A stretch of 36,654 nt of DNA, taken from IMG/VR virus record IMGVR_UViG_2778261064_000029, one strand, 5' to 3'. Within the stretch, counting starts at the first letter, position 1, and each line of letters starts with the position of its first letter. This DNA comes from a virus (Duplodnaviria > Heunggongvirae > Uroviricota > Caudoviricetes). Below are positions 4,153 through 36,654 of this stretch, in pieces. The position numbers and the translations under genes were made by a program. Under the pieces are notes generated by a model. It saw nothing but the letters and a program-made list of their open reading frames with translations, ran no database searches and was not told where the DNA came from.

Positions 4153-5225
4153 TCAATTGTCCCCGGTGTTAACAGTTCCGTATTCTCCGAACGCTGGATC
4201 TCTGTCGGGAAACGCACTTCAAAATCATCCAGACCGGTAACACCTGCCACCGCACGGATAATACGGGAGGGGGCAAGTGCGCCGCCCGGCGTCACCTCAT
4301 TAAAAAACATGGTATTAATGGCGTGAGTAATAGCCTGTTTCAGTTCGGCTGTCTTCGGTGATATATAAATCCGTGGATTTACCGGCTTTGCCTTTGGCGC
4401 AAATACAGTGACATTTACACCGTCAGGCTGTCCGACAATCAGACCAGTGATCGGGTCAGTATGACCGGCGATATAATCCGCCACGCGTTCCACATCTGCC
4501 GGTTGTGGAAAAATATTGCTCCGGTTATCCATAACAAACGTCACCCCGACTGTGCCACCGCCTTTCCATGTCGGAAAACACCAGGCACGGGTAACGCCGC
4601 TGACTTCACGTGCCCAGCGAACGTAATCAAACTGATTACCGCCGAACGGAGGGTACTGGACACAATATTCCAGCCGTGACAGCAGTTCCGCTGCACTCTC
4701 AATATCAGCTCCACCGGAAAACCCTTTTACAGTGATGGCATCGGAAACAACACAGGCAACCGGGGTGATCAACGTTAAAAGGGTATTCTCACCGGTATTT
4801 CCTGCTTCACCGGCAGCCAGTGCGGTAACGGTAATTTCCGTCGTTCCTGCACGGTCAATCACAATGGCATCAGCCAGGCTGTAAACCACACCATCAGCAC
4901 GCTGCCAGCGTGTACCGGCAGGAATGGTGGTCGCTGCCGATGTGGTGACAGTCAGCGGGCCGCTGGCGGCTGTCGCCTGTTTGCGGCGCACGCCCCAGAA
5001 CCGGCAGTGCTCCAGCAACTCATCTTCATCTGCTGTCGACGGGATAATCTGCCGTCCAACCCATGAAATATGCTCGTGACAACCGGCAGCAAGGCCCGCC
5101 TGAGCATAAGCAATGGCACTCAGCGTTTTTTCACGGGCCTGAGGCCAGCTACCCGGCAGGCGCTGTTCAATATTCTGTTCTGTACGGGCAATCAGCGATG
5201 ATAATGTCGGTGGTGAATAAGCCAT
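4143..5225 (-). CDS. Baseplate J-like protein (Mu gp47-like)
   Basis: 360 aa; position and size typical of baseplate wedge J family. Confidence 0.8.
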   Translation of the reverse strand: MAYSPPTLSSLIARTEQNIEQRLPGSWPQAREKTLSAIAYAQAGLAAGCHEHISWVGRQIIPSTADEDELLEHCRFWGVRRKQATAASGPLTVTTSAATTIPAGTRWQRADGVVYSLADAIVIDRAGTTEITVTALAAGEAGNTGENTLLTLITPVACVVSDAITVKGFSGGADIESAAELLSRLEYCVQYPPFGGNQFDYVRWAREVSGVTRAWCFPTWKGGGTVGVTFVMDNRSNIFPQPADVERVADYIAGHTDPITGLIVGQPDGVNVTVFAPKAKPVNPRIYISPKTAELKQAITHAINTMFFNEVTPGGALAPSRIIRAVAGVTGLDDFEVRFPTEIQRSENTELLTPGTIEWL

Positions 5226-5663
5226 TTAAACCCCGTTAAATGCTGCTTTAAACTCATAAGGAATAACGGAACCATCCGGTAATGTCAGTGCAATGTAGAG
5301 GTATAACCAGCCCTGATGTAACTGTTCCGCTCTGACGTTAATCGCACTTACCCGGCCCGCTGTTTTCAGCCATTCCAGCGCCTCTTCGGCATACCCTCTG
5401 GCGCGTTCCAGCGTATCCGGTGTGGCTTTTTCACGTGATAACAGCCACAACCGCGAACCGATGGGGCGGTCGCGGTAACTGTCACCCCACCATCCACGGC
5501 GATCATCTGAACCATCCGGCAGCGTGTCAGAATCCAGCGCGCGCCGGTCGGTAAACAGGGAGATTGTCACATCGGTTGTCAGGCTGTCGTCGGTCAGCAT
5601 ATCAATACCATCCTGCGCAATATCGCCGCGTCCGTTCGTCCAGATAATGGCTAAATCGGTCAT
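5226..5663 (-). CDS. Baseplate wedge protein (Mu gp46-like, GPW/gp25-like)
   Basis: 145 aa; ATGA overlap with upstream gene; synteny. Confidence 0.75.
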   Translation of the reverse strand: MTDLAIIWTNGRGDIAQDGIDMLTDDSLTTDVTISLFTDRRALDSDTLPDGSDDRRGWWGDSYRDRPIGSRLWLLSREKATPDTLERARGYAEEALEWLKTAGRVSAINVRAEQLHQGWLYLYIALTLPDGSVIPYEFKAAFNGV

Positions 5664-6253
5664 TGCATCGGCCCTGTGGTTCCGCCGCTGTCGCCACGGT
5701 GGATATGCTTATCCGTCGATTTGCCATTGATGATGGCATCCGGGGCAGTAATATTGCTGTCGAACTGGCTTTTACCTTTAACGCCCAGACCTTTCTGGAT
5801 CTCAACGTCGCCGGTAAACGTGGTTCTGGGTGTGTCAACGGTCATACTTTCATCAGCGTAAACCTCAACCGTTTTACAAGTAATGATGCAGCGCCCGTCC
5901 TTTGTCAGCCTGATACGATGCCCCTCGTGGTGGTAAATGCCTGCATCACCCGGTTCAAGATTTGTCGGGCGGTAGCGGCGGTCTTCCACCACAACGGCAA
6001 TCCCCTGATCACGTTGTGCGCCTACACAGGCAATCAGCGCCTCTGCGCCCGGCAGGGGAACGCTGAAATGCCCGTAATTTTGCAGGCGCTCCACTTCATC
6101 GGCTTCCTCATCATCCAGCAGACCGACCTGCAGGTTCTGAACCTTTCGCCCGTCGTTAATCACGTTAACAACGGCACGCGCAAGCATCAGACGCACACGA
6201 CGCATCAGCGGTGTCAGCAGGCGGTTCATGGCGGAATCATTTACTCTTTCCAC
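5660..6253 (-). CDS. Baseplate spike/assembly protein (Mu gp45-like, gpV-like); start either GTG 6253 or ATG 6229
   Basis: 197 aa ORF; synteny between hub protein and wedge genes. Confidence 0.75.
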   Translation of the reverse strand: MERVNDSAMNRLLTPLMRRVRLMLARAVVNVINDGRKVQNLQVGLLDDEEADEVERLQNYGHFSVPLPGAEALIACVGAQRDQGIAVVVEDRRYRPTNLEPGDAGIYHHEGHRIRLTKDGRCIITCKTVEVYADESMTVDTPRTTFTGDVEIQKGLGVKGKSQFDSNITAPDAIINGKSTDKHIHRGDSGGTTGPMQ

Positions 6254-22767: not shown

Positions 22768-23054
22768 GCACGGGGACGAGGACGCTTGACACCGGCAACG
22801 CGGGCACGACCTTCTGCCACATCCTGACCTCGGGAGGTCAGCGTTACGACATAAAAGCCGCGCAGGTTTTCCACGGTGACCAGTTGCTGCTCTGCCAGCC
22901 AGTCAATCTGGCCGCGAACCACATCGCGGGAAACGTTGTGTCCGTATGCATCCAGACAGTCCTGAAGGATGGATTCGTTTGCTTCGTTATTGCAGTCCAT
23001 CAGGGAACGCAGGATGACCAGACGACGGTCTTCGGTCAGAATATCGTTAATCAT
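22764..23054 (-). CDS. Hypothetical protein (Mu gp26-like)
   Basis: 96 aa; ATGA overlaps on both sides. Confidence 0.55.
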   Translation of the reverse strand: MINDILTEDRRLVILRSLMDCNNEANESILQDCLDAYGHNVSRDVVRGQIDWLAEQQLVTVENLRGFYVVTLTSRGQDVAEGRARVAGVKRPRPRA

Positions 23055-23350
23055 GAATTACTCCGGTTTACTGCGTTTTCAAGCAGCAGCTCCAGTTGAT
23101 GGGAAAATGACTGCACCCGCTGGGACAGCACCCGGATATCGCCGGACAGCTCTGCAATTCGCAGGCGCATTTCGTGTACATCTTCTGTGCCAGGGATGCT
23201 GGCGTAGCGGGTTTCCATTTCGGTCATCCGGTTTTCAAGACGCTCCACACGCTCAGTGCTGGCAAAACTACGACGCATTGCCCAGACGGCCCCACCGGCC
23301 ACAACAGGCAACAGGTAAGGCCATAACGCTAAAACTGAAATCAAATCCAT
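23051..23350 (-). CDS. Membrane protein with N-terminal TM helix and coiled coil (Mu gp25-like, lysis-associated candidate); ATG at 23350 preferred over GTG 23368
   Basis: MDLISVLALWPYLLPVVAGGAVWAM hydrophobic segment then heptad-like region; GGAG RBS. Confidence 0.55.
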   Translation of the reverse strand: MDLISVLALWPYLLPVVAGGAVWAMRRSFASTERVERLENRMTEMETRYASIPGTEDVHEMRLRIAELSGDIRVLSQRVQSFSHQLELLLENAVNRSNS

Positions 23351-23544
23351 TATTCTGCTCCACGGCACCAGTGGCAGTAGTTCGCCATCGGCTGCTGTCT
23401 CAGCACATCAGGCCGCAGCTCACGACCGCAACCGGCACACAATACAGGCGGGTCATACGCCGCCGGGCGGGGAATATCACGGGTATCCCCCTGCCAGAGT
23501 TCAGCGAGCAGCAGCGCCACCGCCCGGTTCTGGTCTTCGTTCAT
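23350..23544 (-). CDS. Small Cys-motif protein (CAGC ... CHWC), putative zinc ribbon (Mu gp24-like)
   Basis: 64 aa; AAGGAA RBS 7 nt upstream of ATG. Confidence 0.55.
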   Translation of the reverse strand: MNEDQNRAVALLLAELWQGDTRDIPRPAAYDPPVLCAGCGRELRPDVLRQQPMANYCHWCRGAE

Positions 23545-23843
23545 AAATTTCTTTCCTTCGGGTCTCCTGTTCCCGGACTGATGCCTTGTCGCGGTTGCAC
23601 TGCCCGAGCGCCATCAACAGGTCAGCATTCCAGAGAAGGGATGCTCCCCACGTCAGGGGCTGTGGCATGGGCGGAACGGGCGTTGCTTCCGTCAGTTCTG
23701 CATCAGTTTCGGGCAGGATCACCACCGATGGCACGGGTGCGTTTTTCGAGTTCCCGCAACCTGTCAGCAGCAACGGCAGGCACAGGACGAGTGCTGCAAT
23801 TGTCACCGGTAATGGCGGTTGTAATTTTTTGTTTTGCATCATG
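23501..23843 (-). CDS. Outer-membrane spanin candidate (lipoprotein), start embedded in i-spanin gene and extending beyond it
   Basis: MMQNKKLQPPLPVTIAALVLCLPLLLTGCG lipobox-type signal, Pro-rich mature part; different frame overlapping 23703..24089. Confidence 0.5.
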
Positions 23844-24089
23844 ATGTTCTGTCTCATCTGCCAGCCGCGCGGCACGATTTGCGGCACGGATAGCGGAAAA
23901 TACCTGCATCGTCTGTTCCTGACCGTGTAACAACCATTCAGCCGTGTTGCGGGCCTGTTGCTCCGTCTGTAATTCACGGCGCAGCGTCTGGTTATCGTGG
24001 CGGGTGCTGTCCAGCCTGTGCCACAACACCCCGGACAGAACGGCGGCAAACACGGCTGCCAGCAGTAAACTTTTACTGGCGAAGGTCAT
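23703..24089 (-). CDS. Inner-membrane spanin candidate (Rz-like)
   Basis: 128 aa; N-terminal TM helix (LLLAAVFAAVLSGVLW) followed by charged helical periplasmic domain; directly after endolysin. Confidence 0.7.
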   Translation of the reverse strand: MTFASKSLLLAAVFAAVLSGVLWHRLDSTRHDNQTLRRELQTEQQARNTAEWLLHGQEQTMQVFSAIRAANRAARLADETEHHDAKQKITTAITGDNCSTRPVPAVAADRLRELEKRTRAIGGDPARN

Positions 24090-24591
24090 CCGCCCCCCTG
24101 ATATTCCAGATAGCCATTTCCACTTCGCGACGGTTCATCAGTCCTTTCCATTTATGGCCTGCGGCAAACACCCAGCGGGCCATCTGGTCACGCGCTCCGG
24201 CGTAATCACCGGCATTGAGTTTTTTCAGCAGCGTTGATTTACTGAATGCGGTAACACCGGTGTTGAAAATAAACGTTGCCAGCGCCGTTTTCTGATATGG
24301 CGTCAGCGGCACCCTGACAAGACGATCGATTGCCGCATAAACCGGTTTTAAATCACTGTCGAGGAGAGCCATACACTCCGCATGGCTGTAACGGCGCATT
24401 TCGATATCCGGCCCGGTATGCCCCACACAGACCGAAAGCACACCGCCAATATCGCGGTAAGGCATATAAGCGATATTTTCCAGGTGGATCAGAGACTGAC
24501 GGGTCATTTCCTGATAACCACCCACACCGCCACCGGCAATCGTTACAGCCAGCAGTGTGGCTTTCAGTTTTTTTGGTATCCCCGCCATCAT
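24073..24591 (-). CDS. lys: Endolysin, lysozyme-like with N-terminal signal-anchor-release type hydrophobic segment (Mu Lys-like)
   Basis: 172 aa; N-terminus MMAGIPKKLKATLLAVTIAGGGVGGYQE then lysozyme-like core; first gene after C. Confidence 0.85.
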   Translation of the reverse strand: MMAGIPKKLKATLLAVTIAGGGVGGYQEMTRQSLIHLENIAYMPYRDIGGVLSVCVGHTGPDIEMRRYSHAECMALLDSDLKPVYAAIDRLVRVPLTPYQKTALATFIFNTGVTAFSKSTLLKKLNAGDYAGARDQMARWVFAAGHKWKGLMNRREVEMAIWNIRGADDLRQ

Positions 24592-24661
24592 GCTTCCCTG
24601 AAAAAATGCTCTGATGGCAGTCTAAAAAATCAGGTGGCAGGTGCGGGATTATGGTGACAGG

Positions 24662-24688
24662 AAATAACCGGCAGGATGCCGGTTATTT
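24662..24688 (-). terminator. Perfect 12-bp-arm hairpin overlapping the C stop codon (middle-transcript terminator or P_lys-associated structure)
   Basis: aaataaccggca-gga-tgccggttattt. Confidence 0.35.
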
Positions 24689-25105
24689 TGGGCTTTCAGG
24701 TGAGAACAGATCAGGCTGATGACGTCGTGTATGCAGCTTTCTCTGGCGGGCAATAATCTGGTAGATCTGCGGCTGGGACAGGCGGTACTGGCGACGCAGT
24801 TCTTCCATGTTACGACCATTAAACTGGCAGTAAAGCAAATCGTCGCGTAACGCGGTCAGGATCGTATCGCCGCAGGGGATGTAAAACTGCCGTCCACCCA
24901 GAAAACAGGACAGGGCAACGGCCTGTTTACGGGCAAGTTCACGGGGATTGCTGACGTTCTGGCGTTTCAGTTCGTTTTCCAGAACATCAATCAGATCAAC
25001 CACCGAACGGGGCCAGCGTGATTCCAGTTCCGGGGCCGGGATGTTATCAATATGTCCGATTAACTGGCGAATTGCCGGATCGTGTTCAAATAAATCATGC
25101 TGCAT
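24683..25105 (-). CDS. C: Late transcription activator C (Mor/C family)
   Basis: 140 aa; paralogous to Mor in the window (LGGRQFYIPCGD vs LGGGQVYIPRGQ; FNGRNMEEL vs FNGRNVHEL). Confidence 0.9.
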   Translation of the reverse strand: MQHDLFEHDPAIRQLIGHIDNIPAPELESRWPRSVVDLIDVLENELKRQNVSNPRELARKQAVALSCFLGGRQFYIPCGDTILTALRDDLLYCQFNGRNMEELRRQYRLSQPQIYQIIARQRKLHTRRHQPDLFSPESPK

Positions 25106-25117
25106 ATTTTCCCCCGG

Positions 25118-25237
25118 TTAACAGACAGAAAGATACACCACGGCACTGATGGTTATCAGAACCACAAGGGCAATCACTTTTATCGCACTCATCAGCGTGG
25201 ACGGCCCGAAACATTCATCACTGAATTTTCTGTACAT
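25118..25237 (-). CDS. Candidate small membrane protein (39 aa), below the ORF-track cutoff
   Basis: MYRKFSDECFGPSTLMSAIKVIALVVLITISAVVYLSVC; single predicted TM helix; weak RBS; fills the gap upstream of C. Confidence 0.35.
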   Translation of the reverse strand: MYRKFSDECFGPSTLMSAIKVIALVVLITISAVVYLSVC

Positions 25238-25448
25238 GGTATTTTTCTCTGTAACGCCGGCAATGGTGGATAATTTCTGGCATATCAACGGACTGCCAGC
25301 CTTTCATGTAATAACTTCCGTGGGTGCCATCGTGCCCTGTGTAATCCATTGGCTTTGGTGGTGGGCCTCCGGCCTCCCGATGTAATACCTCCTGTCGTAA
25401 ACGTTCACGCCTGCCGAACTGAAAGGACGCATCCCACCCTTTACCCAT
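25218..25448 (-). CDS. Hypothetical protein, 76 aa (ATG 25448 preferred over track start 25502)
   Basis: ATG begins 3 nt after the stop of the upstream GH108-like gene (coupling). Confidence 0.5.
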   Translation of the reverse strand: MGKGWDASFQFGRRERLRQEVLHREAGGPPPKPMDYTGHDGTHGSYYMKGWQSVDMPEIIHHCRRYREKYHVQKIQ

Positions 25449-26001
25449 GCAGAACCTCCCGACAGGCGCTGGCGAGCAGATCCAGACGGTTAAACCAGCC
25501 ATTCAGATATTTCCCCTGCGAGGCACTGGATTTGATAATCCCTGCGTAATAGCGGGAACGACGCAGGAAGCACTGCAACAGCAGCCAGTCAGTATCGGCA
25601 CGCAGAACGGCTGCGCGTGTGTTTTTACCGACGATGCCATCATCATCAACACCTGCTGCCGCCTGGAGGATCTGAATCGCGCGTTTAACACCGTGCTGAA
25701 CGGCAGCATCAAAAACGAATAAGGAAACGCCATCAGGCCATTCGTTACACTTTGCCGCCAGCCAGTAATCACGCCAGTAGATCTGCGCCGCCTGCTCGCG
25801 GGTTAAATCCTTAATGCGGGTATCAGGTTTTCCGTCACCGTTAACATCGGTTTTGCCATCAATAACGCCGTCGCGACGGTCAGAAATACCGTATTTCGTT
25901 TCGCCGCCACGGTCGGCAGGATCATTAACATAGCCACCTTCAACATCAGGGCGTATAACGAAATTCAGCGAATGAAGGAATGCAGGGGAAAACTCAGGCA
26001 T
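25441..26001 (-). CDS. Peptidoglycan hydrolase candidate, GH108-type N-terminal motif plus peptidoglycan-binding-like C-terminal region
   Basis: EGGYVNDPADRGGETKYGIS motif near the N-terminus, then IYWRDYW; AGGAGG RBS 6 nt upstream; first gene after the early terminator. Confidence 0.75.
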   Translation of the reverse strand: MPEFSPAFLHSLNFVIRPDVEGGYVNDPADRGGETKYGISDRRDGVIDGKTDVNGDGKPDTRIKDLTREQAAQIYWRDYWLAAKCNEWPDGVSLFVFDAAVQHGVKRAIQILQAAAGVDDDGIVGKNTRAAVLRADTDWLLLQCFLRRSRYYAGIIKSSASQGKYLNGWFNRLDLLASACREVLHG

Positions 26002-26053
26002 GTTGCCCTCCTGTCATGAACGTTTTATCGTCACAACAGAATATTGAGGGCGT

Positions 26054-26075
26054 AAAAAAAGCCGGATTAACCGGC
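26054..26075 (-). terminator. Intrinsic terminator 8 nt after mor stop (early-operon terminator)
   Basis: Minus-strand RNA: GCCGG-UUAAU-CCGGC followed by UUUUUUU. Confidence 0.65.
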
Positions 26076-26083
26076 TTTACTGT

Positions 26084-26473
26084 TTAAAACAAAGGGGGGG
26101 AATACTGACGATACTTTATACGCCGCATTCGTCGGATGGCTTTATAGACTGTGTTAAATGTCACACCATGACGGATTGCCAGTTCGTGAACATTGCGACC
26201 GTTGAAATCATTCCAGATACGCAAATCCCGAATAAGCGAATCCAGAACCTGACCGCGTGGAATGTAGACCTGACCGCCGCCCAGATGCTTACAGATAGCC
26301 ACAACAATCTCCAGTGAATGGGCCGGGTCAACACCTAACCGGGACAATTCCCCGCGCAGTAAATCGTTCAGCTCCGCCAGCAGTGCCGGAAAGCGTGACG
26401 TATCCTCTGCGGGATTGTCAAGATGTGCCAGGATGGTGTCATCCTGCAAATCACCAAATAAATCTTCCGTCAT
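26084..26473 (-). CDS. mor: Middle operon regulator Mor (Mor/C family activator)
   Basis: 129 aa; paralog of C; ATGA overlap with gemA. Confidence 0.9.
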   Translation of the reverse strand: MTEDLFGDLQDDTILAHLDNPAEDTSRFPALLAELNDLLRGELSRLGVDPAHSLEIVVAICKHLGGGQVYIPRGQVLDSLIRDLRIWNDFNGRNVHELAIRHGVTFNTVYKAIRRMRRIKYRQYSPPLF

Positions 26474-27021
26474 TGTGCCATCCTCCGTGTCTTTCTGGCA
26501 CGGGCATAAGCCGCCGTCATGGCATCATAGCCGCGCAGTTCACGCCCGGACGGACTGACTGGCAACGGAAGCCCGTGACGGGAAAAGGCTTCACGAATAC
26601 AGCGGATATGCCACTGCTTGAGAGTTTCGAGAACAATCAACAGGGTGTCGCCATGACACCACGCCAGCGTGGAAACACCCTGTCTGCCATTACGTTTCGC
26701 CGTCAGGCGCTGAACATATTTATCCAGCGCCACATCACCGTCATCGGTAATAAAACCGTCTTCTGCCATCTGCTGCCAGACTTTGTATACCTTCTCGCGG
26801 GGCGTGACATGCCCCTTAAAGCGGCGACGTGGATGTTTATTCAGCTTCTTAAAGCCGCGTTCTTTCATGGCATCGAGCACCTGTTCCAGTTGCGTAACCG
26901 TCAGCTCGCGGCAACTGATTTTGCCCGTTTTCTGCATCAGAAAAGCGCGGTAAGTGTCGTCGTCGAGTTGTAGCTCCCGACGGGCGACATGGATTAATTT
27001 AATCAGGGATGTGCGATTCAT
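26470..27021 (-). CDS. gemA: GemA-like early protein
   Basis: 183 aa; position immediately upstream of mor; GGAGG RBS. Confidence 0.8.
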   Translation of the reverse strand: MNRTSLIKLIHVARRELQLDDDTYRAFLMQKTGKISCRELTVTQLEQVLDAMKERGFKKLNKHPRRRFKGHVTPREKVYKVWQQMAEDGFITDDGDVALDKYVQRLTAKRNGRQGVSTLAWCHGDTLLIVLETLKQWHIRCIREAFSRHGLPLPVSPSGRELRGYDAMTAAYARARKTRRMAQ

Positions 27022-35339: not shown

Positions 35340-35514
35340 TGTTTTTCGTATTTTCAATGAAACAAAAGCAATTTTTTACTATCTTTCGCGTTTCATTGAT
35401 TAACGACTAAAATTTGCGCTACAGGCTTGCAAGCCCCACCAAATCTAATCCCATCAGATCCCGAATAATCCAATGTCCTCCCGGTTTTTTTCGTACTTCA
35501 AGTGAATCAATACA
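35340..35514 (-). repeat. Left-end attachment region with three MuA end-binding repeat units (L1-L3-like) and terminal 5'-TG
   Basis: Repeats around 35340..35368, 35386..35414 and 35487..35510 share the YGTTTCAYT...CGAAA pattern on the minus strand; last prophage base 35514. Confidence 0.85.
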
Positions 35515-35749
35515 ATAAAATATTCCATCTATCGTTTGTTAAAAGCGTAGATAACCACTTATTTAACAACTTGAAAATAAGGTATTTTACCTGGGTTGTT
35601 ACAAAAGGATTGCATTGCGTAAACGCTTTTTATTTACAAAAAAATGGGGAAGTGTTACAGCGATTGCGAAAAGTCTGAAGCAATTGAATTAAGATAATAT
35701 AGAAAATCAGATACAGCAAAAATGGCAGATTGATGAGGTGAAGATAAAT

Positions 35750-35823
35750 TGGAGCGGGCGAAGGGAATCGAACCCTCGTATAGAGCTTGGGAAGCTCTCG
35801 TTCTACCATTGAACTACGCCCGC
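35750..35823 (-). tRNA. glyU: tRNA-Gly (anticodon CCC)
   Basis: Reverse complement gives GCGGGCGTAGTTCAATGGTAGAACGAGAGCTTCCCAAGCTCTATACGAGGGTTCGATTCCCTTCGCCCGCTCCA, 74 nt, 7-bp acceptor stem, CCA end. Confidence 0.95.
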
Positions 35824-35840
35824 TTCGAGATGCGTAAGGC

Positions 35841-35868
35841 ATTATAAACCTTACGCTCTCCTTAGCAA
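35841..35868 (-). promoter_or_regulatory. Candidate sigma70 promoter of the tRNA-Gly gene
   Basis: Minus strand TTGCTA (-35), 16-nt spacer, TATAAT (-10), GC-rich discriminator; about 15 nt upstream of mature tRNA 5' end. Confidence 0.5.
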
Positions 35869-35901
35869 GTGCCGCGCTGCTGACTGCTGATTAATTCGCC
35901 A

Positions 35902-36654
35902 TCAGCATTTTGGCTTGCTGCCCTGAGGCGGCAAGTAACGTAGCGGATCAATTGCCGTTGCACGGTAACGAATCTGGAAATGCAGGCGAACCGATGCCGC
36001 ATCAGTGCTCCCCATAGTGGCGATTTTTTGCCCAGCCTTCACGCTTTGCCCATTATTTACCAGCATCGTGTCATTATGGGCGTAAGCCGTAATGTAATCT
36101 TCACTGTGTTTAATCATGATGAGATTACCGTAGCCACGCAGCTGGTTGCCCACATACACCACCTTTCCTGCACCCGCGGCGTAAATAGGTGTACCCCGTG
36201 GAGCTGAGATATCAATCCCTTTATTGCCGCCATCAGCTGTCGAATACGGCATGATAACTTTCCCTGTCGTTGGCCATAACCAACAACGTTGCCCTACTGG
36301 CGGCCAGGAAGATTTTGGTACTGCTGATGACGGTGTAACCGATGCGGTTTTGGTCGTTGATTTGGCGGTTGATTTACGTGTACTGCTACTTTTCGCCCCA
36401 CCCAGTTTTAGTTTCTGACCAACTTCAATGGTGTAAGGGGGGGAAATGCCGTTCAGCCGCGCCAGCTCTTTTACGCTGGTTCCCGTGGTGCGCGAAATAC
36501 GATATAGCGTATCCCCCCGTTTCACGGTGTAAACGGAGCCGGAATACGTTCCTGTATCGGATGATTTGCTACCCGAACAGCCCGCCAAAAGCAGTCCAAC
36601 CGATAACAACATCACGATACCCAGAGATTTTTTATTCAGGCGTCCCGCACTCAA
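35902..36654 (-). CDS. ygeR: Host lipoprotein with LysM domain and M23 peptidase domain (YgeR/NlpD-like); reaches the window edge, so the 5' end may be incomplete (track start is TTG)
   Basis: Lipobox LLLAGCSG; LysM YTVKRGDTLYRISRTTGTSVKELARLNGI; M23-like C-terminal half. Confidence 0.8.
   Translation of the reverse strand: MSAGRLNKKSLGIVMLLSVGLLLAGCSGSKSSDTGTYSGSVYTVKRGDTLYRISRTTGTSVKELARLNGISPPYTIEVGQKLKLGGAKSSSTRKSTAKSTTKTASVTPSSAVPKSSWPPVGQRCWLWPTTGKVIMPYSTADGGNKGIDISAPRGTPIYAAGAGKVVYVGNQLRGYGNLIMIKHSEDYITAYAHNDTMLVNNGQSVKAGQKIATMGSTDAASVRLHFQIRYRATAIDPLRYLPPQGSKPKC

Follow-up and report, generated by a model that had tools for sequence, protein, structure and literature searches.

Coliphage N4 gp61, a phage endolysin with an essential Glu in its EGGY motif, is the founding member of the GH108 family. 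The family also includes SagA of Brucella abortus, an autolysin which serves the assembly of a type IV secretion system and uses Glu17, Asp26 and Thr31 as catalytic residues (PMC8334348), and TtsA, the type 10 secretion muramidase of Salmonella Typhi (PMC13284979). For phage Mu, experiments have shown that lysis is holin-less and is brought about by the signal-anchor-release (SAR) endolysin gp22, the releasin gp25 and the spanin gp23/23.1, and that inactivation of genes 19 and 20 has no significant effect on lysis (PMC9239132). Many Mu-like phages pair SAR-less endolysins with DUF2730 proteins, of which gp25 is one, and Chamblee et al. 2022 (PMC9239132) left open what these proteins do in that setting. 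The DNA analysed here, a stretch of 36,654 nucleotides (nt) from the Caudoviricetes record IMGVR_UViG_2778261064_000029 (hereafter the window), is a Muvirus prophage in reverse orientation, whose conserved genes are approximately 97% identical to those of Mu, but which carries a GH108 gene upstream of the late-gene activator C besides the Mu-type lysozyme gene lys downstream of it.

We consider it probable that this GH108 protein is a retained and, as predicted, functional auxiliary endolysin of the cytoplasm, made from the middle promoter Pm and belonging to an ancestral lysis module driven by the activator Mor. Since relatives of this prophage show the order Mor-GH108 without C or a GH24 lysozyme, the double-lysozyme layout is best read as a mosaic, in which the ancestral Mor-driven module has been kept beside the Muvirus-specific gp20-C-Lys-spanin module. 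The protein family and its role as a phage endolysin are already known, RefSeq already names the gene a GH108 protein, and the enzyme itself is ordinary. In the searchable literature, however, we did not find a description of a subset of true Muvirus genomes with GH108 as the first middle gene, nor of the conservation of Mu gp18 as the partner which follows GH108 endolysins throughout the Mu-like phages; the literature retrieved for GH108 in Mu-like phages consisted of papers on phage WO, and the paper on Yersinia Mu-like phages neither mentions a GH108 gene nor gives burst or latency data.

The gene is an open reading frame (ORF) of 186 amino acids (aa) with an ATG start, and it was confirmed to encode a two-domain GH108 muramidase by prediction. 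A sequence-only reading of the window had given its coordinates, length and motifs exactly, to which we add the strand (minus), and had proposed a profile search; in this search, Pfam Glyco_hydro_108 matched aa 20-104 (E=9.3e-25, 87.4 bits, cut-off 21.2) and PG_binding_3 matched the C-terminal aa 107-173 (E=6.8e-14, 52.3 bits, cut-off 24.6), so that both clear their curated cut-offs. In PHROGs, phrog_315 “endolysin” was matched with 1.4e-51, and all these values are far beyond chance. The hallmark motif of the family is present as DVEGGYVNDPADRGGETKYGI (aa 19-39), and the catalytic Glu of EGGY, the possible loss of which had been named as an objection, is kept on alignment, as E21-G-G-Y24 pairs with the SagA Glu. 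In the HMMER alignment, E21, D30 and T35 align with the SagA triad E17, D26 and T31, and all three are invariant across 47 aligned homologues. One detail of the earlier reading has to be corrected: the YWRDYW stretch (aa 75-80) does not belong to the C-terminal region but to the N-terminal catalytic domain, where it sits on the substrate-binding helix matching Tyr65 and Tyr69 of SagA.

The nearest solved proteins by sequence are Neisseria NMB1012 (1e-20) and Brucella SagA (PDB 7DNP; 2e-17), followed by the Salmonella TtsA type. The AlphaFold (AF2) model reached a predicted local distance difference test score (pLDDT) of 83.3 and a predicted template modelling score of 0.83, and a Foldseek search with it returned 7DNP (TM-score 0.73/0.77), 2IKB for NMB1012 (0.62/0.70) and 6V3Z of the Sen1395/TtsA type (0.59/0.61). 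Signal peptide, SAR domain and transmembrane segment are all absent from the protein; its N-terminus, MPEFSPAFLHSLNFVIRPDVEGGY, is without a hydrophobic stretch, and helix 6-15 is the first helix of the catalytic domain in the model. In this respect it agrees with canonical holin-dependent endolysins, which are soluble and have neither signal peptide nor SAR domain. An acidic, DG-rich insert, DRRDGVIDGKTDVNGDGKPD, occupies codons 41-60 (25822-25881, minus strand) and forms a DxNxDGxxD-like loop. Of this insert, 14 aa are not found in the Vibrio and Shewanella homologues, in NMB1012 or in SagA, but D41, R43, D44, G45, D48, G49, D52, G55, D56 and P59 are invariant in the 47 homologues, which are enterobacterial; its region has low pLDDT in the model. 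The insert resembles the DxNxDGxxD calcium loops of dockerins and EF-hands.

The genes and signals around GH108 are, in the direction of transcription:

26470-27021, minus strand: gemA.
26084-26473, minus strand: mor, middle operon activator and last early gene (Pfam Mor, E=5.9e-30).
26054-26078, minus strand: early-terminator-like hairpin, AAAGCCGG-TTAAT-CCGGCTTT with a U-run, within the Pm-homologous region.
26002-26053, minus strand: Pm core and leader by alignment with Mu and SfMu Pm, with the -10-like TATTCT (26038-26043) and the Shine-Dalgarno sequence AGGAGG (26007-26012).
25441-26001, minus strand: the GH108 ORF.
25218-25448, minus strand: gp18 (E18) homologue, 76 aa.
25118-25237, minus strand: gp20 homologue, 39 aa, with a single transmembrane segment.
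24683-25105, minus strand: C, late-gene activator and last middle-operon gene (Pfam Mor family, E=9.4e-34).
24592-24684, minus strand: hairpin at the C stop and region matching Mu Plys (105/106 identical to Mu).
24073-24588, minus strand: lys, GH24 SAR endolysin, orthologue of Mu gp22 (Pfam Phage_lysozyme, E=3.8e-36).
23703-24089, minus strand: gp23 spanin homologue (97.7% nt identity to Mu gene 23, which is annotated as Rz-like spanin in Mu).
23353-23544, minus strand: zinc-finger gene.
23054-23350, minus strand: gp25 homologue (DUF2730, Mu “releasin”; 100% in tblastn to the elppa5 DUF2730 protein).

The second lysozyme which the earlier reading had noticed downstream of C is thus indeed a Phage_lysozyme-family protein, and GH108 is, as it had also stated, the first ORF past the early terminator: it follows mor after a gap of 82 nt which holds an 8-bp hairpin and a U-run. 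This hairpin (stem AAAGCCGG/CCGGCUUU) starts 5 nt past the mor stop, folds as RNA with -12.6 kcal/mol (z=-2.4), is identical in Mu and SfMu, and is kept as AAGCCGGTAAATCCGGCTTTTTTTA upstream of GH108 in the one E. coli PSS-15-type prophage inspected. A consensus terminator scan missed it, probably because extension of the stem consumes the T-run, and the region was folded instead. Pm of Mu has no -35 element and needs a Mor dimer on a 16-bp dyad centred at -43.5 (PMC4390567); the Mor-site region is conserved in the window, where the Mor box and the -10 element were assigned by position and homology only, not base by base; a 2025 preprint on Mor/C structure gave no help with this mapping. The leader matches that of Mu with 87.5% identity and that of the E. 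coli elppa5 prophage with 100%, and AGGAGG lies 5 nt ahead of the GH108 ATG. At the other end, the GH108 stop and the start of the gp18 homologue share an 8-nt overlap (ATGGGTAA), and 6 nt upstream, within GH108, stands GGGAGG; this arrangement suggests that the gp18 homologue is translationally coupled to GH108. The C-lys intergenic region, carrying Plys in Mu, is identical to Mu at 105 of 106 positions. Based on the homology of Pm, leader, overlap and C-lys region, the placement of GH108 in the middle operon, on the same strand between Pm and C, is well founded, and its control would be separate from that of lys. The expression canonical for late and lysis genes is not what the locus suggests for GH108, which is upstream of C under a Pm-homologous promoter, Plys being located downstream of C. 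Hence, the description of GH108 as a gene of the middle operon, physically apart from the C-dependent Lys cassette, is upheld, with the timing taken from Mu.

The equivalent Mu gene, which the earlier reading had asked for, does not exist. From mor to C, Mu has Pm-E18-E19-gp20-C and SfMu has Pm-E18-gp20-C, while the window has Pm-GH108-E18-gp20-C; GH108 is a clean indel of about 590 bp versus SfMu, right after the Pm -10 region, and the corresponding slot of Mu is occupied by E18-E19-gp20. The Yersinia phages vB_YpM_5 and vB_YpM_6 have the layout of the window and are 99.9% identical to it, but D108 and the Yersinia phages vB_YpM_3 and vB_YpM_23, like Mu and SfMu, have no GH108 gene. As a possible deletion scar in Mu, the resemblance of its leader GGGGAAAATCATC to the 3′ end of PSS-15 GH108 (CTGGAAATCATC) was considered, and rejected because so short a match is not reliable. 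A Muvirus mor-C region is present in 44 of 5426 complete E. coli genomes, and eight of these prophages (about 18%) have GH108, five in the layout of the window, including elppa5, in which E19 is also kept, and three of the SE11 type, which has a divergent C and a different lysozyme homologue. The remaining prophages divide equally into 18 of SfMu type and 18 of Mu type. Dual lysozymes are therefore a minority state which recurs in two divergent lineages. In the SE11 prophage, the lysozyme homologue (L007:6763-7191) has Ala at the position of the catalytic Glu37 of Mu gp22, which leaves GH108 as the only lysozyme detected in this prophage with an intact catalytic Glu. The C-terminus of this homologue is shortened and unrelated after about residue 114, its N-terminal hydrophobic segment is kept, and the spanin and zinc-finger genes are also missing from the prophage.

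Beyond Muvirus, the closest phage homologues are all found in Mu-like phages, namely Klebsiella Kp4866-3 (72% identity), a Vibrio group (43%) and Shewanella MuM16-2 (43%), where GH108 lies 8-10 kb from the left end. Their genes are arranged as GemA-Mor-(one gene)-GH108-gp18 homologue-(membrane protein)-protein of about 200 aa-DksA/TraR zinc finger-DUF2730-winged helix-terminase, with neither a second Mor-family gene nor a GH24 lysozyme in any of them, and the E. coli PSS-15-type prophage shows this arrangement as well. IMG/VR was scanned with an alignment of gp18 homologues, and the gene order of 80 loci was classed by BLASTP against seed proteins, the protein of about 200 aa being termed Hol200. 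GH108 precedes the gp18 homologue in 67 loci: 56 have GemA-Mor-GH108-E18-E19-Hol200-zinc finger-DUF2730 without C or a second lysozyme, eight have the order of the window (one also with E19), two are of the SE11 type, and one is a truncated GemA-Mor-GH108-E18-E19 locus which cannot be classified. The 13 loci without GH108 all have C and the GH24 Lys. With the GH108 alignment as query and one representative genome per species, 23 close loci were found, every one in a Mu-like element with Mor directly upstream of GH108, and in none of them was there a further gene of the Mor/C family or a GH24 lysozyme of the Mu type. They come from Klebsiella, Raoultella, Brenneria, Serratia, Trabulsiella, Erwinia, Leminorella, Yersinia, Vibrio, Enterovibrio and Rheinheimera. 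As such single-activator elements have neither C nor a second lysozyme, GH108 is their only detected lysozyme. Clustering at 90% identity groups the GH108 protein of the window into 96 members from 80 contigs, beyond which identity to the next relatives drops to 73-74%.

Selection on GH108 was assessed by Nei-Gojobori counts for alleles from prophages which also carry C. The window differs from SE11 by two non-synonymous and 23 synonymous changes (ratio of non-synonymous to synonymous rates, dN/dS, of 0.024) and from elppa5 by none and 13, and SE11 differs from elppa5 by two and 19; dN/dS in the three comparisons is 0-0.05. A fourth comparison, with the near-identical IMG/VR locus L092, gave three versus five changes and a dN/dS of 0.18, a value which is not informative with so few substitutions. 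All 8 E. coli genomes and all 10 IMG/VR loci of the C-containing type have the ORF at full length. The counts show the gene to be under strong purifying selection. The locus is also mosaic. In nt identity to Mu, E18 (78%) and Mor (89%; 88.7% for mor, which is 98.2% identical to elppa5) stand apart from C (99.8%) and Lys (98.8%), and it follows from this gap that the two haplotypes separated early in comparison with the remainder of the genome. In the comparison of 25118-26473 with Mu (L001) and elppa5 (L008), the boundary is sharp: identity to Mu is 78-89% for mor, Pm and the gp18 homologue but 98-99.8% for gp20, C, lys and gene 23, and the junction falls at the gp18/gp20 overlap. The Mor-Pm-GH108-E18 segment is a distinct haplotype block.

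The gp18 homologue shares 83% aa identity with Mu E18 (L001:2103-2321), 69% with the Kp4866-3 gene following GH108, and 37-40% with the counterparts in Vibrio and Shewanella Mu-like phages. It matches phrog_2121 (1.6e-37), and its homologues carry a precomputed PF26867 assignment, a family missing from our local Pfam copy; neither this copy nor the local NCBIfam gave a match. AF2 modelled the protein confidently with three helices, for which the fold search against PDB returned nothing significant (best hit E=0.9, RNA polymerase omega subunit). Judged by homology and synteny, Mu gp18 is a conserved gene right downstream of the predicted GH108 endolysins in Mu-like elements of Enterobacterales, Vibrio and Shewanella. 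The gp20 homologue is 95% identical to Mu gp20 (phrog_19823). For the protein of about 200 aa of the relatives, repeated sub-threshold matches to GTA_holin_3TM (E 8e-4 to 5e-3) make it a candidate holin; the RcGTA literature examined does not state the domain family of rcc00555. Of the 284 positions in the phrog_2121 profile, 3-75 are matched by gp18 homologues and 88-273 by the candidate holin (L006:4570-4788 and 5176-5781), and one profile covering both implies that the two are joined in a single protein in some phages. Such a fusion was sought in 160 loci and not found; one apparent gp18-E19 fused ORF occurs in a Serratia metagenome-assembled genome. The label E19 is partly positional, since Mu E19 is clearly a homologue of the SE11 protein (40% identity, 3e-22) but has only marginal similarity to those of Klebsiella and PSS-15 (E about 0.02, with a tiny database).

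The rest of the lysis region is nearly that of Mu. C has 99.8% nt identity to Mu C, and a hairpin, AACCGGCA-TCC-TGCCGGTT (24666-24684, minus strand), overlaps its stop, with ATTT coming next; Mu has the identical hairpin, at which the middle transcript may end. Lys shares 168 of 171 aa with Mu gp22 (98%; 98.8% nt), the differences being A11T, A47G and T52S. In the catalytic motif E-X8-D-X5-T, the third residue is T52 (codons 52 and 47 at 24433-24435 and 24448-24450, minus strand). The G47/S52 allele was seen only in GH108-bearing genomes (the window, vB_YpM_5 and loci L094-L096) and in 0/14 genomes without GH108, but this association is not independent evidence, because all carriers form one close lineage. 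At the outer side, the Mu left end (TGTATTGATTCACTTGAAGTACG...) was found at 35487-35514 on the minus strand; the sequence past it, 35515-36654, is not of Mu and presumably belongs to the chromosome of the host, next to the site of insertion. The window begins within the tail-fibre region, and the right end of the prophage is outside it.

From these findings, the following history and function may be proposed for the auxiliary endolysin. The ancestral lysis module would have had the order Mor - GH108 - gp18 homologue - small membrane protein - candidate holin of about 200 aa - zinc finger - DUF2730. In the Muvirus lineage, the gp20-C-Lys(SAR)-spanin module occupies the place of the candidate holin, by which GH108 and gp18 would have been left upstream of C under Pm. 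Later, GH108 and E19 were presumably lost independently in some lineages, so that Mu, D108 and SfMu would keep an orphan gp18 and the window prophage would keep GH108. The gene would be transcribed from Pm once Mor appears, translated from its strong Shine-Dalgarno sequence and coupled to gp18. Because it has no export signal, the protein would accumulate harmlessly in the cytoplasm and meet murein only upon the breach of the inner membrane in lysis driven by Lys, gp25 and the spanin, when it could act as an auxiliary peptidoglycan-binding muramidase which completes or backs up the degradation of the wall.

Several points weigh against this proposal. Retention, as opposed to re-acquisition by recombination, rests on parsimony regarding the direction of evolution, and the Mor-Pm-GH108-E18 segment does form a haplotype block distinct from C. 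In tblastn, no Hol200 or E19 homologue was found anywhere in the window, so that a holin is missing from the cassette, and Mu-type lysis is itself holin-less (PMC9239132); therefore, a route to the wall before rupture is not evident. An enzyme acting only after rupture might have little value, and late action is hard to square with a dN/dS of about 0.02-0.05, unless the auxiliary activity matters or an export route exists. Such strong selection is not expected for a late-acting enzyme, which leaves room for a further export route. Further, GH108 is dispensable for plaques, as the five phages without it demonstrate, and as both enzymes are predicted to cut the same bond, there is no obvious complementarity in bond specificity.

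Its dispensability also speaks for GH108 being a functionless passenger, i.e., a relic of the old cassette carried between Pm and the essential C. The gene was lost without a cost in viability in Mu, D108, SfMu and the two Yersinia phages, its candidate holin is absent from the window, and genes 19 and 20 of the same operon were inactivated in Mu with lysis not significantly affected (PMC9239132). Nevertheless, the functionless-relic explanation is contradicted by the selection data, with zero to two non-synonymous against 13 to 23 synonymous changes per pair, and further points against it are the full-length ORF in all 8 E. coli genomes and all 10 IMG/VR loci of the C-containing type, the preserved triad and strong Shine-Dalgarno sequence, and the SE11-type prophage, in which GH108 is the only lysozyme whose catalytic Glu is intact. 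We therefore regard this explanation as unlikely.

GH108 could also be the main wall degrader, reaching the periplasm by a non-holin route through the gp18 homologue, gp20 or gp25, and Lys would be mainly a trigger or back-up. This division of labour appears quite doubtful. It would agree with the pairing of DUF2730 proteins with cytoplasmic endolysins in many Mu-like phages (PMC9239132), with the gp18 homologue, which follows GH108 almost universally and is probably translationally coupled to it here, with the SE11-type prophage, which pairs GH108 with a GH24 homologue lacking the catalytic Glu, and with T52S at the third triad position of Lys, an allele seen only in GH108-bearing phages. However, Lys is 98% identical to the functional Mu gp22 and a Thr-to-Ser exchange is conservative; the T52S carriers are one closely related lineage, and the SE11-type prophage may simply be defective. 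Further, Mu gp19, gp20 and gp25 do not show holin-like lethality, and the model of the gp18 homologue is without a significant fold match. Equally tentative is the more general idea that a signal-less endolysin under strong selection in a holin-less lineage reaches the wall by a novel route depending on its neighbours, i.e., on the gp18 homologue, gp20 or DUF2730. If it were true, genes 18-20 of the Mu middle operon would provide accessory factors for a second endolysin pathway that needs no holin.

The sequence-only reading had taken two muralytic enzymes under different temporal control as suggesting a role other than end-point lysis. This suggestion is not supported, as the relatives place GH108 as the sole detected lysozyme. 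A non-lytic or pre-lytic role would consist of local remodelling of peptidoglycan in the middle phase, like that of TtsA or SagA, or of an effect on superinfection. It is possible in principle because TtsA is likewise without a signal sequence and an identified holin, and the promoter of GH108 differs from, and is presumably earlier than, that of lys; the family includes the non-lytic SagA and TtsA (PMC8334348, PMC13284979), and selection on GH108 is strong despite a complete Lys system. On the other hand, the protein has no signal, SAR domain or transmembrane segment and lacks the C-terminal anchor of SagA, and in nearly all relatives it holds the position of a lysis gene. No cargo gene (toxin, chitinase) or secretion gene is adjacent, its neighbours being mor, the gp18 homologue, gp20 and C, and the PADLOC models did not match GH108, the gp18 homologue or gp20. 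The similarity to TtsA is also distant, with E=7.5e-6 for 6V3Z and 71.2 bits against a cut-off of 240 for NCBIfam NF040573, the TtsA-type “holin-associated N-acetylmuramidase”. Taken together, we judge such a role improbable. Many phages carry a second muralytic activity for entry, but a virion-associated lysin packaged in the particles is hardly credible here, as no result of our analysis supports packaging, the gene is outside the structural region, unfused to a tail or head protein and, in relatives, among lysis genes, and GH108-less Mu-type phages infect normally.

The context of GH108 also bears on Mu itself, as it offers an evolutionary account of the orphan middle genes: gp18, and possibly gp19, would be conserved partners of a GH108 endolysin. 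Given this partnership, the Mu middle operon resembles the first part of an old lysis cassette driven by Mor, with C and the SAR-endolysin module as later insertions. The phages vB_YpM_5 and vB_YpM_6 and the prophages of E. coli WS1933D, elppa5 and SE11 are natural variants which pair a cytoplasmic endolysin with holin-less Mu lysis, and they bear on the question of Chamblee et al. 2022 about the function of DUF2730 proteins beside SAR-less endolysins (PMC9239132). In annotation, caution is advisable, since the lysozyme doing the lysis differs among “Mu-like” prophages.

Compared with known systems, the best structural match of the GH108 protein is SagA (7DNP), with which it has the two-domain clamp and the Glu/Asp/Thr triad in common (PMC8334348). 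In contrast, SagA serves the assembly of a secretion system, it continues with a linker and a C-terminal transmembrane anchor where the window protein stops after the binding domain, and it is without the 14-aa acidic insert. TtsA/Sen1395 (PDB 6V40, 6V3Z) belongs to the same fold family and also has neither signal sequence nor identified holin, but TtsA is PhoP-regulated and linked to a toxin cargo (PMC13284979). With Mu, the window shares Pm, gp18, gp20, C, Plys, Lys, spanin and DUF2730 at 78-99.8% nt identity; Mu has E19 and no GH108, and the window has GH108 and no E19. The single-activator relatives (Kp4866-3, PSS-15, the Vibrio phage 1.028.O group and Shewanella vB_SspM_MuM16-2) have the same pair of domains in their GH108 proteins, which are 72-74% identical to that of the window in enterics and about 43% in Vibrio and Shewanella, lack an export signal and are encoded directly or shortly after Mor and before the gp18 homologue. 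These relatives have an E19-position membrane protein (in enterics) and the candidate holin of about 200 aa, but no C, GH24 Lys or gp20, whereas the window has no such candidate holin and continues with a complete C-Lys-spanin module of the Mu type.

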